Assembly (NCBI GenBank): GCA_044359585.1
Contig: JBIKLV010000010.1
Span: 3,319 to 67,318, forward strand
Source of the DNA: Sulfuritalea sp.
GTDB taxonomy: Bacteria > Pseudomonadota > Gammaproteobacteria > Burkholderiales > Rhodocyclaceae
DNA length: 64,000 nt
Reading direction: 5' to 3'
Made by a program: the position numbers and the translations under genes. The notes below the pieces were generated by a model. It saw only the letters and a program-made list of their open reading frames with translations, was not told where the DNA came from and made no database searches. This document shows, piece after piece, positions 3,246 to 8,853 of this stretch. Within the stretch, counting starts at the first letter, position 1. Each line of letters opens with the position of its first letter.

Positions 3246-3674
3246 ACGCAGACCATGGCGGGAGCAGAACTCCCGTAACGCGCGCCTGCTTGCCCGAGCC
3301 GTTTGTTGTTGGTCTGACGCCGACCCCGCGGACCAACAAAGCGAGGCAGCGCCCCCATACGGTTCGACATTCGCCCCGAGCCCGGCGAACGGGGCCGTCT
3401 CCGTGGCCAATGCTTCCCAGTTTCACATAGCTCCCAACTGACCAAAAATGAGTGCCGCTGCCCCATCGGCCTGCGAGTGATCATCCGAATGCCGACTGCA
3501 CGCCATGCCCCGTCCTTGGTCGGCTCCGGCTTGACTACCATGCCATCGAAGCGAATACCCGTTAGGCCGAAAAGACTATTGCAATGGACTACCGGGGTCC
3601 CTAAGCTCTTACCCAATGGCAGGGAGTCACTTTTCTGCATGTTTCGATCAAATAAAGAATGGGAGCCCAGAAAA

Positions 3675-4570: not shown

Positions 4571-5989
<1,419 letters not shown>

Positions 5990-5992
5990 GGT

Positions 5993-7345
5993 TCAGGCCC
6001 TGGGCAAAACTACGCTGACGACCGTGCCGCCCGCCTCGCCGGCGCCCAGCGCCAGCGTGCCGCCGTAGCGCTCGACCACCCGGCGTGCCAGCGGCAGCCC
6101 GAGGCCGAGCCCCTTGGGCTTGGTCGTGAAAAACGGTCGGAACACCTGCTCGCGGATGTCCGGCGCGATGCCGCCGCCGTGGTCGGCGATGTCGACCCGC
6201 AGGCGGTTGCCGTCATGATCGGCCAGCCCGACCCGGCAACGGCCACCGGCCTGCATCGCCTCGGCGGCATTGCTCAACAGGCTGTCGAACACCTGCCGCA
6301 GCAGCGCCATGTCGGCGGCGACGATGGGCTTGGCTGCCGCGCATTCGCAGACCAGCGTCAGGCCCTGCCGCTCGAAGGCCGGCAGGTGGTCGGCGACGCA
6401 GCGCACCAGCAACTCGCCGAGGTCGCCAGGGGCGCCGGATTGCATCGCCTTGCCGGAAAAGTTCAGCAGCTCGACGATGCGCGCCGATATCCGGTCGACT
6501 TCGCGGATGATGTCCTGGGCCTGCTCCGAACAATCCTCGGTCGGCGCTTCGAGCGCCAGTTCCGCGGCGGAGCGGATCGACGACAGCGGGTTGCGGATGT
6601 TGTGCGCCACCGACGAGGTCAGCTCGCCGACCACCGCAAGCGTCTCGGCCTCGACCAGGCGCGCATGCTGCAGCTGTATCGTGCTGTCGGCGCGGCGGAT
6701 CATCCAGAACAGCGTGAGGTAGAGCAGCAGCGCGCTGCCCAGCGCCGTCAGGCCGACCTGCACCCGCCCTTCGTTGATTGCTTCCGATAGCGCCAGCGGC
6801 GCCTTGTAGAGCTCGACGACGCCAACTACCTGGCCGTCGGGGCGCTTCACCGGAATGTAGCTTTCGACGAAGAATTCGATCGACGGATTGAGGCCCTCGT
6901 GCTCGCGCTTTTCCTGGCTCGACGCCGTGATGCGTCCGGCATGGACGACGAGCTCGCCCTTCATGGCATCGTCGAGTTCGTCGTTGTCGGCGAAGCGGCG
7001 CCCGATCAACTGCGGATCGCTGGACCAGAGGACGGACCGGTCCTGGCCGAAGACGTTGGCACGCAACACGTCGCGCATGGTGGACAGATGTTCCACGGTG
7101 TTGCGAAAGCGCGCCGCGAGTTCCGGGTCGCTCGGCCGCGTAAGGAACTCGAGCGAGCCGTCGGCGACCATGATGTTCTGCACGAATTCGCGGCTGATCG
7201 AGGCTTCGCGCTGGAACAGGTGACTGTTGAGGAAGTTGGAGATCAGCCAGACGTTGGCCAGCGCGATCGCGGCAATGACGATCGGGCTGAGCCAGGCGAA
7301 CCAGCGCAGCAGGTTGAATGGTTTGCCGTGTTCCCCGTTTGCCAT
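5993..7345 (-). CDS. Membrane sensor histidine kinase with periplasmic sensor domain
   Basis: Two TM segments flanking ~160 aa, H-box VAHNIRNPL, N box, FFTTKPKGLGLGL. Confidence 0.93.
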   Translation of the reverse strand: MANGEHGKPFNLLRWFAWLSPIVIAAIALANVWLISNFLNSHLFQREASISREFVQNIMVADGSLEFLTRPSDPELAARFRNTVEHLSTMRDVLRANVFGQDRSVLWSSDPQLIGRRFADNDELDDAMKGELVVHAGRITASSQEKREHEGLNPSIEFFVESYIPVKRPDGQVVGVVELYKAPLALSEAINEGRVQVGLTALGSALLLYLTLFWMIRRADSTIQLQHARLVEAETLAVVGELTSSVAHNIRNPLSSIRSAAELALEAPTEDCSEQAQDIIREVDRISARIVELLNFSGKAMQSGAPGDLGELLVRCVADHLPAFERQGLTLVCECAAAKPIVAADMALLRQVFDSLLSNAAEAMQAGGRCRVGLADHDGNRLRVDIADHGGGIAPDIREQVFRPFFTTKPKGLGLGLPLARRVVERYGGTLALGAGEAGGTVVSVVLPRA

Positions 7346-7385: not shown

Positions 7386-8360
7386 TTACCAGCTTATCGC
7401 ATACGCCAGCGAGACCTGGCGATAGCGATTCTCGTAGAGCGCCAGGTTCGCGCGATTGGTGGCGGCGATCGCCTCGAACTTGAGGGTTTGTCCCGGCGCG
7501 ACTTCATAGGCGCCGCCGAATTCGACCGTGGTCGCGCGGTCGCGGCGCGCCGGCAGGCCGGGCAGCGGCGTATCGTCGAACACGGCGGATTGCCATGACA
7601 TGCCCGCGCTCCAGCCGATGCCCCATTGCCTGCGGTCCAGCGACACCCGGAAGAACGCGTTGCGATTCGCCAGTTCGGCGAAGCCGCGATCGTTGCGTTC
7701 GCGGCCGACGGCGATCTCGAGGTCGATCGCATCGATGCCCGGCACGGGCTCGACCTGGCGTCGCTTCACCATGAACAGGGTGGCGGTCGAATCGAGGTCG
7801 ACCAGGTCATCCCAATGGCGATTGGTGCCGCGATCGAGGAACAGCAGCCAGTGATTGCCGGCAAGGTCGCCGGTCGCCCAGTCGGCATGCCAGCCGCGTA
7901 CCGAGCGGAAGCGTTCGCCGGCCACCTCGATCCGCTGCAGGTTGGGCCCAATGCCGAAGTAGCCCCCGGCGAAGGGGGTGCGCAGCATCGGATTGACCGA
8001 TGCCATGGCGAAATCGAGTGCCTGCACGCCCGGCGCCCGCTTGTAACGAATGTCGCCACCCAGAGCCAGACGCGATTCGGCGCCGAGCGCCCAGTCGGTG
8101 AATCCGCTGATGCCTCCCTGGTAATGCGTTCCGGCCAGGCGATCGAAGCCGTCGAGGCGGATCAGCACGCCTTCGGGAGAAATGCGGACCAGCGGGGACG
8201 TCTGCGACTCATGGCCGACGCCGAACTCGGCGGCGAAGTTCGTCGTGGTCGGCGGCCCGGATACCGGACCGGCGACTTCGGCCAGCGCCGGCAAGGCCAG
8301 GGCAAAGCCGAGCGCCGCCAGGCCGCGCGCTGCGCGAGCGGCCAGCGTGGCGACGATCAG
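7386..8360 (-). CDS. Outer-membrane beta-barrel protein, Slam/DUF560-like C-terminus
   Basis: Signal peptide ending LPALA-EV, amphipathic beta strands, terminal NRANLALYENRYRQVSLAYAISW; start probably the in-frame CTG at 8360 overlapping the upstream TGA (alternative ATG 8429). Confidence 0.65.
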   Translation of the reverse strand: MIVATLAARAARGLAALGFALALPALAEVAGPVSGPPTTTNFAAEFGVGHESQTSPLVRISPEGVLIRLDGFDRLAGTHYQGGISGFTDWALGAESRLALGGDIRYKRAPGVQALDFAMASVNPMLRTPFAGGYFGIGPNLQRIEVAGERFRSVRGWHADWATGDLAGNHWLLFLDRGTNRHWDDLVDLDSTATLFMVKRRQVEPVPGIDAIDLEIAVGRERNDRGFAELANRNAFFRVSLDRRQWGIGWSAGMSWQSAVFDDTPLPGLPARRDRATTVEFGGAYEVAPGQTLKFEAIAATNRANLALYENRYRQVSLAYAISW

Positions 8361-8545
8361 ACGCCCTTGCGGCAGACCTGCTTGTAGGTATTGGTGTTGT
8401 TCACGGAGGAAACCAGCACCCAGGTGCATTTGACGCCGTGGCCCAGGCTGGTGCTGTTGCCAGCCGAAGCCGGAGTCACCATTGGCAAGGTCAGAAGCGA
8501 TGCTGCGATCAGGTAGGAAACGATTTGCGTGGCGACGTTGTTCAT
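8357..8545 (-). CDS. 62-aa secreted peptide: signal peptide plus 34-aa mature region with two Cys
   Basis: GGAG RBS, Sec signal ending PASA, mature GNSTSLGHGVKCTWVLVSSVNNTNTYKQVCRKGV. Confidence 0.8.
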   Translation of the reverse strand: MNNVATQIVSYLIAASLLTLPMVTPASAGNSTSLGHGVKCTWVLVSSVNNTNTYKQVCRKGV

Positions 8546-8630
8546 GATAGTTCTCCATTGGGGTCAGGGTCTTCGGGCTTGAATCCCGGTCACACCAGAC
8601 TCCATCGGAGCCGGTGTTGCCCAACTGGTA

Positions 8631-8646
8631 TGCAGAAACAGTGCCA
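8631..8646 (-). promoter_or_regulatory. Sigma-54 (-24/-12) promoter
   Basis: TGGCACTGTTTCTGCA with exact GG-N10-GC spacing, ~85 bp upstream of the peptide start. Confidence 0.8.
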
Positions 8647-8662: not shown

Positions 8663-8693
8663 CAAGAAACTGATTTATATATGAAATAAAAAG
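8663..8693 (-). promoter_or_regulatory. IHF binding site with adjacent A/T tract
   Basis: AATCAG-TTTC-TTG (8663-8675, minus) matches WATCAR-N4-TTR, just upstream of the -24 element. Confidence 0.6.
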
Positions 8694-8853
8694 TCGCGCC
8701 ATGCTGGCCGGGAGTCGGGAACTGATTTGCCCCACCACAAATGGGTGATATGACCCAGAACTTGGTGGAGGGCCAGATTGCCGCGCATTGCAAGCGAAGA
8801 GGACGGAATGCCGGCTGTCGCCGTGCTTGGCCGGCCCGATTCAGGACGGATGC

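Follow-up and report, generated by a model that had tools for sequence, protein, structure and literature searches.

The 64,000-nucleotide stretch of Sulfuritalea sp. DNA analysed here (positions 3,319 to 67,318 of contig JBIKLV010000010.1, assembly GCA_044359585.1; hereafter the window) carries on its reverse strand four consecutive genes, which encode a small peptide, an outer-membrane barrel, a sensor histidine kinase and a sigma-54 activator of the NtrC type (Table 1). A first-pass annotation had proposed that the first of these, a 62-residue open reading frame (ORF), specifies a leader ending in PASA and a mature peptide of 34 residues. We confirm the ORF, the leader and the mature part, with exactly the sequence quoted there, and conclude that it is a true gene, whose small exported peptide is the main output of a self-contained four-gene module. 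By sequence comparison, this is a four-part, unannotated module of freshwater and wastewater betaproteobacteria. The most informative evidence is the genomic context, which combines a sigma-54/enhancer promoter, the overlapping gene of a Slam-like barrel, and the genes of the kinase and the activator.

No family, name or paper covering the peptide, the barrel or the module was found in Pfam, NCBIfam, the annotations of homologues or the literature. A full-text search with fragments of the peptide sequence returned no papers, and a general literature search on sigma-54, secreted peptides and the outer membrane returned nothing relevant. The peptide has no match above threshold in Pfam or NCBIfam; a match to WGxxGxxG (15.1 bits against a cut-off of 35, E 0.026) was dismissed as leader-driven noise.

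Table 1. Features of the peptide module and its promoter region, in window coordinates
Feature	Position	Strand	Remarks
Peptide ORF	8545..8357	-	62-residue precursor; sequence as quoted in the first-pass annotation
Ribosome-binding site GGAGAA	8551..8556	-	5-nt spacer to ATG; GGAGAA or GGAG at the same position across loci
Signal peptide MNNVATQIVSYLIAASLLTLPMVTPASA	8462..8545	-	28 codons; variable hydrophobic leader, PAxA end in all homologues; AlphaFold2 helix 2-18
Mature peptide GNSTSLGHGVKCTWVLVSSVNNTNTYKQVCRKGV and stop TGA (8359..8357)	8357..8461	-	34 residues; near-invariance, purifying selection, predicted hairpin
Barrel gene	7386..8375	-	About 325 residues, 14 strands; overlaps the end of the peptide gene; based on homologues, AlphaFold2 and start-codon comparison
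Sensor histidine kinase gene	5993..7345	-	Transmembrane helix 1, periplasmic domain of about 160 residues (residues about 38-195) without a known family, transmembrane helix 2, HisKA, HATPase_c
NtrC-type sigma-54 activator gene	4571..5989	-	Receiver, AAA+ Sigma54_activat (E 2e-66), Fis-type helix-turn-helix; kept beside the kinase gene in related loci
Upstream activator site 1, TGGGTCATATCACCCA	8742..8757	-	Perfect palindrome; 111 nt upstream of the -24 element
Upstream activator site 2, TGGGGCAAATCAGTTC	8719..8734	-	Half-palindromic; starts 23 nt downstream of the start of site 1; half-site TGGG[GTC]NAWWT at -88
Integration host factor (IHF)-like site, AATCAGTTTCTTG	8663..8675	-	Between the activator sites and the promoter
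Sigma-54 -24/-12 element, TGGCACTGTTTCTGCA	8631..8646	-	TGGCAC-N5-CTGCA; predicted transcription start near 8620

The peptide and its family

The precursor MNNVATQIVSYLIAASLLTLPMVTPASA/GNSTSLGHGVKCTWVLVSSVNNTNTYKQVCRKGV consists of a 28-residue Sec-type leader with a PASA terminus, followed by the 34-residue mature peptide. Cleavage after PASA is predicted from the AxA rule and from the onset of conservation at this point. The two cysteines of the mature peptide, Cys12 and Cys30 (Cys40 and Cys58 of the precursor), would delimit a C-x17-C ring. The mature peptide contains 3 Lys, 1 Arg and 1 His and neither Asp nor Glu; its calculated isoelectric point is 9.7 and its net charge +3.8. Its mass is 3.64 kDa, and loss of two hydrogens on oxidation would lower it from 3,638 to 3,636 Da. 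The n-region of the leader (MNNVATQ..., window 8525-8545, reverse strand) lacks Lys and Arg, as does that of its 95% relative; most homologues carry one such residue. We rejected a reading as a lipoprotein, given the lack of a lipobox and of a Cys at position +1, and a reading as a ribosomally synthesized and post-translationally modified peptide, since none of the loci has a conserved modifying enzyme.

A search of 5.8 billion proteins returned 47 clusters of homologues of 59-83 residues (E 1e-32 to 3e-7), here termed type 1, from Accumulibacter, Rubrivivax and metagenomes, all of them unnamed or labelled "hypothetical protein". In their alignment the leader is free to vary as long as it stays hydrophobic and ends in AxA, and the mature part is nearly invariant, with precursor positions A28, N30, S33, G35, G37, K39, C40, W42-V45, C58 and R59 unchanged throughout. 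When all pairs of 11 orthologous 34-codon mature regions were compared, synonymous codon differences (616) outnumbered non-synonymous ones (245); in the same regions the core GVKCTWVLVSS is invariant as protein and uses 1-4 codons per site. On these comparisons the peptide gene is real and under purifying selection, and its conservation is well beyond chance.

Several loci contain a divergent paralogue, type 2 (e.g. ...AREGAQSVGKGVKCYTAAVLQADGTVKYQRICYKGV), and a profile search with this type returned 211 further clusters. Common to both types are the motifs around the two cysteines, GxG[VI]KC and Q[VI]C[RY]KG[VA]-COOH, and across the two types a signal peptide and the Cys pair are kept in >250 clusters. 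With Glu and Asp among its residues, type 2 is weakly cationic, at a net charge of about +1.7; the conserved property is therefore not the charge but the Cys-flanking base of the hairpin. The initial description of the peptide as basic and free of acidic residues thus holds for the window copy and fails as a trait of the family. Free-standing type-2 genes, with their own sigma-54 promoters and without a barrel of their own, also exist. On two lake contigs (L048, 3384-4531; L049, 6720-8121) the type-2 peptide gene itself overlaps a barrel gene by 1 nt; one of these two pairs sits between the kinase and regulator genes, and just upstream of the other lies a called 64-residue ORF without the family motif.

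AlphaFold2, supplied with the 47-sequence alignment, models the precursor as a helix at residues 2-18 and two strands at 38-48 and 51-60, the hairpin having a predicted local distance difference test score (pLDDT) of about 81-83. Both faces of the hairpin are largely hydrophobic or beta-branched and not clearly amphipathic; Val, Thr, Ser and Asn abound in the strands, and the charges of the mature peptide cluster at the hairpin base, which in the model also carries both cysteines. In the modelled strand register the two cysteines are one residue off direct opposition, so the disulfide and the exact register remain predictions. Of the disulfide-closed hairpin proposed in the first-pass annotation, the Sec leader, the 34-residue peptide and a hairpin bracketed by Cys12 and Cys30 fit the invariance of the cysteines and the model; the bond itself keeps its predicted status.

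In every comparison made, the mature peptide is the most constrained part of the module. Identity to the window in Accumulibacter amounts to 91% for the mature peptide, 48% for the barrel, 63% for the kinase and 66% for the regulator. The corresponding values in lake Burkholderiales are 62-74%, 35-39%, 40-42% and 51-54%, and those in Rubrivivax are 91% for the mature peptide and 38% for the barrel (no figures for kinase and regulator).

The module is sparsely distributed. The peptide occurs in 2 of 25 genomes of the genus sample, and of 400 genomes sampled evenly from the class, the window's own was the only one with the barrel family. A scan of 185,579 species genomes identified 19 loci, all in metagenome-assembled genomes and nearly all labelled Rhodocyclales, Burkholderiales or 'beta proteobacterium'; one short contig was binned as Rhodospirillaceae. 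The carrier genomes encountered included no cultivable organism. A metagenome scan with the barrel alignment gave only three loci, each with the peptide gene upstream (3/3), and DNA of the window itself turns up in metagenomes of lakes and fresh water. Contigs 88-94% identical to the peptide gene occur in metatranscriptome assemblies of four studies (wastewater, sludge, bioreactor and sediment), and two of these contigs end at about 8600-8602, just downstream of the predicted transcription start. In metatranscriptomes of the organism's own lake, a few exact read-length contigs map to the regulator gene and neighbouring genes. The first-pass annotation had let its prediction hang on homologues that keep the Cys pair and signal peptide and on a transcript or peptide; both kinds of homologue feature are kept among the clusters described above, and close relatives of the gene are found in metatranscriptome contigs.

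Promoter, translational coupling and the outer-membrane barrel

The region upstream of the peptide gene has all the parts of a sigma-54/enhancer promoter predicted from sequence, namely a -24/-12 element of the GG-N10-GC form, activator sites and an IHF site, and the genome encodes rpoN in addition to the activator of the operon. No sigma-70-like promoter was found between 4300 and 9000. A -24/-12 motif precedes the ATG by 60-101 nt in nearly all of the 33 peptide genes scanned, which come from several genera and include type 2. Of 24 peptide promoters, 20 contain the palindrome TGGGN-N6-NCCCA at fixed offsets (-111/-89 or -100/-77), compared with 1.3 expected from shuffles, and most related loci have a second, tandem activator site. 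Similarly, the IHF consensus WATCARN4TTR occurs at -29 to -41 in 16 of the 24 promoters against an expectation of 0.2. The window's genome contains a single promoter with this combination of activator sites and -24/-12 element and a single peptide gene; by this pattern, the peptide operon therefore appears to be the whole regulon of the regulator. In lake Burkholderiales, a second sigma-54 motif shares the same activator sites and points in the opposite direction, towards the kinase and regulator genes. In L026-L029 this motif (e.g. TGGCACGCCGTATGCA) lies between a type-2 peptide gene and the kinase gene and faces ninX-kinase-regulator, the palindrome pair being common to both directions, a divergent and autoregulated layout like that of zraP-zraSR.

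The reading frame of the barrel opens inside or directly after the peptide gene, and the two genes are paired in every complete locus examined. The pair overlaps or abuts in each of these loci, across several lineages and in three relative reading frames. In the window, the in-frame candidates for the barrel start are CTG at 8375..8373 and CTG at 8361..8359. The equivalent of the former is GTG in Rubrivivax and Dechloromonas and TTG in another metagenome-assembled genome; the latter forms a CTGA overlap with the peptide stop and is replaced by TTG in one Accumulibacter. The CTGA overlap and the lack of a canonical start point to coupling by termination and reinitiation at a non-canonical barrel start. 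Other lineages begin the barrel with ATT, GTG or ATG and in other frames, always within -19 to +38 nt of the peptide stop. In L027 and L029, peptide and barrel share one frame and are separated by a single TGA and 12 nt, after which the barrel ATG follows; since other lineages use the +1 or +2 frame, the coupling has been rebuilt several times. The strong start of the peptide gene (ATG with GGAGAA), set against the weak barrel starts (CTG, GTG, TTG, ATT), favours a large excess of peptide over barrel, as would suit a cargo and its channel. In a 97% identical homologue (P0048), the truncated barrel model of the gene caller begins after the leader.

The AlphaFold2 model of the barrel (pLDDT 86.8) has 14 long strands and, at residues 57-69, one additional short hairpin. 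Among 1.84 billion representatives, a profile search identified about 62 close relatives of 300-330 residues, and remote relatives (E 1e-15 to 1e-5) that are proteins of 430-490 residues with tetratricopeptide repeats (TPR) N-terminal to the barrel. Of 43 such TPR-plus-barrel proteins, 13 match SlipAM (DUF560) in Pfam (best 6e-15) and 4 match TPR_Slam. An hhalign comparison of the barrel with this set gave 99.9%, a figure with some circularity, as this very profile had been used to collect the set; when one SlipAM-positive protein alone was compared, the result was 87.8% (E 3.4e-6, 229 columns). The motif of the terminal strand, RN..N..LY.NRYRQ, resembles RN.SN..LY.Y.R of the TPR-plus-barrel relatives. 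In the window the barrel starts straight after a leader of about 35 residues and the TPR domain is absent; all close homologues are of similar length, roughly 300-330 residues. A search of solved structures with the barrel profile gave no match, and in a Foldseek comparison with the PDB the top 50 matches listed contained only generic porins, FadL and OmpG at a template modelling score of about 0.5 and no Slam. We thus regard the barrel as a distant, TPR-less relative of the Slam group, below the level of Pfam membership.

The best-conserved block of the barrel across lineages, E.G.GxESQTSPL[VF]xISPxG, comprises residues of about 45-70 (window about 8160-8240, reverse strand). It maps to the short extra N-terminal hairpin, a part modelled with lower confidence, and may be where the invariant peptide docks. 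The loci of the TPR-plus-barrel relatives may represent a different, likewise uncharacterised system; their neighbours (L041-L043; G244, G131, G372) are large secreted proteins, which by eye we take to be FecR-like or CHASE2-like.

Kinase, regulator and gene order

The kinase and regulator genes adjoin the peptide-barrel pair in most loci, in an order that depends on the lineage. Rhodocyclales and Accumulibacter have peptide-barrel-kinase-regulator, Dechloromonas and lake Burkholderiales kinase-regulator-peptide-barrel, and one lake contig kinase-peptide-barrel-regulator. Four genomes have the pair without an adjacent kinase gene, and all four encode a kinase with the same sensor domain elsewhere; in Rubrivivax, this distant kinase adjoins an orthologue of the regulator on another contig. 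A kinase orthologue is therefore linked to the peptide or present in every peptide-carrying genome checked. A sequence search of solved structures with the sensor domain of the kinase found no match. In lake Burkholderiales, an ORF of 140-146 residues lies directly upstream of the kinase gene (L029, 2512-2946; L049, 5981-6403). It matches Pfam Phage_P22_NinX (precomputed matches for the copies on L049 and the P0040 contig), has no evident signal peptide and is absent from the module of the window.

Function of the module and comparison with known systems

The closest comparison is with type 11 barrels (Slam1/2, NilB, HrpB; SlipAM/DUF560). Like these, the window's barrel is predicted to be a single-component, Sec-dependent barrel of 14 strands, lies beside the gene of its presumed substrate, and is homologous at profile level to TPR-plus-barrel proteins that pass the Pfam threshold for SlipAM. 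Type 11 barrels have an N-terminal periplasmic TPR domain of about 140 residues (PMC8406197), whereas the window's barrel has neither this domain nor a SlipAM match. Known type 11 cargo have an 8-strand barrel domain at the C terminus (PMC12282271), whereas the presumed cargo here is a hairpin of 34 residues, and a dedicated kinase and sigma-54 activator are not a described feature of type 11 loci. Within the type 11 family, the clusters dominated by water and soil organisms hold no characterized proteins (PMC8406197, PMC12282271). The most fitting description of the module is a TPR-less, single-barrel export system of Slam/type 11-like kind, whose presumed cargo is the 34-residue hairpin and which has a sigma-54 two-component circuit dedicated to it.

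We propose, with a probability of roughly 0.55, that the peptide is exported by Sec, oxidized to a hairpin and handed to the barrel for export or display, under two-component sigma-54 control with positive feedback. In this scheme the regulator would bind the tandem TGGGN-N6-NCCCA palindromes observed upstream and, assisted by an IHF-type bend, activate the sigma-54 promoter at 8646..8631. The precursor would be translated efficiently, exported by Sec and cut after PASA, as its sequence and conservation suggest. In the periplasm, oxidation of Cys12 and Cys30 would close a beta-hairpin of about 9 residues per strand; genes of the DsbA family are present in the genome. The TPR-less 14-strand barrel would then move the hairpin across or onto the outer membrane, a role suggested by the observed coupling and homology. 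Because kinase and regulator are encoded in this same operon or, in other lineages, behind a divergent sigma-54 promoter, the circuit would amplify itself once the periplasmic domain of the kinase is triggered. As its most likely role, the peptide would be exported as an effector or surface factor, and it may also feed back on the kinase.

Several points weigh against this proposal. The link of the barrel to Slam is remote: the barrel ORF (window 7386-8426) matches no Pfam or NCBIfam family at E <= 0.1 and does not match PF04575, and 19 of the 43 TPR-plus-barrel relatives match BBP2_2. No small Cys-pair peptides were found beside the remote TPR-plus-barrel relatives examined. The C-terminal 8-strand barrel domain of type 11 cargo is impossible for a peptide of 34 residues (PMC12282271). 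No ATG, GTG or TTG codon of the window could start the barrel with its signal peptide intact, and metatranscriptomes from the organism's own lake, with minimal coverage of the organism, contained no reads on the peptide gene. Finally, export beyond the periplasm is our interpretation, to which retention of the peptide in the periplasm would be the alternative.

It is possible, if well short of probable, that the peptide acts instead as a ligand or modulator of its own kinase, either as an autoinducing signal with positive feedback, akin to quorum sensing, or as a periplasmic feedback partner, and that the barrel sets its level in the periplasm or outside. The kinase, which accompanies the peptide in all genomes checked, has a periplasmic domain of about 160 residues that is conserved; sigma-54 promoters place the circuit under its own regulation, and several peptide paralogues share the same activator sites. 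Like ZraP-ZraSR, CpxP-CpxAR and MgrB-PhoQ, the module places a small Sec-exported or periplasm-facing product under its own two-component system, and with Zra it shares the sigma-54 promoter, the NtrC-type regulator and, in the lake lineages, the divergent layout. Yet the peptide, at 34 residues and coupled to an outer-membrane barrel, has no sequence relation to ZraP, CpxP or MgrB and does not match their families, and kinase and regulator score far below the cut-offs for ZraS (141.8 against 479 bits) and ZraR (335.9 against 760). A more far-reaching version, of which we are doubtful, is a Gram-negative form of peptide autoinduction, in which the hairpin would leave through the TPR-less type 11-like barrel and be sensed by the module's own kinase, and the sigma-54 regulator would boost the module. 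If true, this would be a class of peptide signalling not described before, and no smaller cargo would be known for a Slam-type barrel. As in the agr, com and nisin-type loci of Gram-positive bacteria, peptide, exporter, kinase and regulator would be in one operon driven by that regulator. The module differs from these in its Gram-negative host, in the use of Sec and an outer-membrane barrel where those loci have AgrB or ABC exporters, in its sigma-54/enhancer promoter, and in a near-invariant peptide without pherotypes and without any other detected regulon. A pure signal would regulate itself alone, because the genome holds no other such promoter. Peptide pheromones usually diversify, whereas this peptide is nearly invariant across orders, and a 3.6-kDa peptide outside the cell could not easily recross the outer membrane, given the established size limits of porins.

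As a sub-case of the export model, the hairpin could be a Sec-dependent, bacteriocin-like peptide used against competitors, with the barrel as exporter and induction by the two-component system; we consider this rather unlikely. The charge of +3.8, the lack of acidic residues and the predicted disulfide-closed C-x17-C hairpin place the peptide near the animal peptides arenicin, thanatin, tachyplesin and protegrin in size class, single ring-closing disulfide and two-strand fold (both predicted here) and, for this copy, positive charge. The layout of peptide, exporter, kinase and regulator recalls bacteriocin loci, the distribution is patchy (2/25 genomes of the genus, about 1/400 of the class), and some loci hold several paralogues. 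However, the hydrophobic or beta-branched faces are not clearly amphipathic and the charges sit at the base, the weaker charge of type 2 (about +1.7, with Asp and Glu) shows that cationic character is not kept, and conservation this extreme across orders would be unusual for a competition peptide. Neither an ABC exporter nor a conserved small immunity gene was found in any locus examined; there is no match to a bacteriocin family (e.g. a YGNGV box), and the leader is of the AxA Sec type rather than the double-glycine type of class II bacteriocins and microcins. Improbable, in our estimate, is a role as a stable part of the barrel (a plug, a lid or added strands) or as the unit of an amyloid-like surface fibre nucleated by the barrel. 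Translational coupling is typical of subunits of a complex, near-invariance fits an interface at which every residue is constrained, and the ESQTSPLVRISPxG block in the extra hairpin might serve for docking. The strong peptide start relative to the weak barrel start argues for an excess of peptide over a 1:1 complex, and free-standing type-2 genes lack a barrel of their own. The abundance of Val, Thr, Ser and Asn on either face of the strands would suit a fibre. Chaplins, curli (CsgA/CsgG) and Fap likewise combine a Sec leader with a short beta-prone sequence; chaplins have two conserved Cys, as here, and curli and Fap a dedicated outer-membrane channel. The peptide matches none of these families and is a single repeat-free unit of 34 residues, its net positive charge disfavours stacking, and the barrel is unrelated to CsgG and FapF by the searches run. 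Effectively refuted, finally, is the reading as a chance ORF or as a leader ORF that regulates barrel translation alone. The gene is indeed short and overlaps the start of a barrel gene without a canonical start codon, but its amino acids are conserved while codons vary, the signal peptide and Cys pair recur in >250 clusters, and free-standing type-2 copies have sigma-54 promoters of their own.

In conclusion, export or display of the hairpin through the barrel is the reading that we favour. Dedicated outer-membrane export of so small a peptide under its own two-component and sigma-54 control is previously undescribed. Most environmental members of the type 11 family have no known cargo, and the known cargo are large, barrel-domain proteins. 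If the barrel exports the hairpin, the substrate range of type 11 would extend down to 34 residues, and both the TPR domain and a barrel-type targeting domain would be dispensable. With four genes and one promoter, the compact module would be a tractable system for the study of substrate recognition by Slam-like barrels. The identity of about 91% in the peptide across orders, compared with 38-48% in the barrel, implies that a target or interface is exceptionally constrained; finding it could open up unfamiliar biology of the envelope or yield a novel bioactive scaffold. The carriers are of ecological and technical importance, including Accumulibacter and Dechloromonas in wastewater treatment as well as Burkholderiales of lakes.

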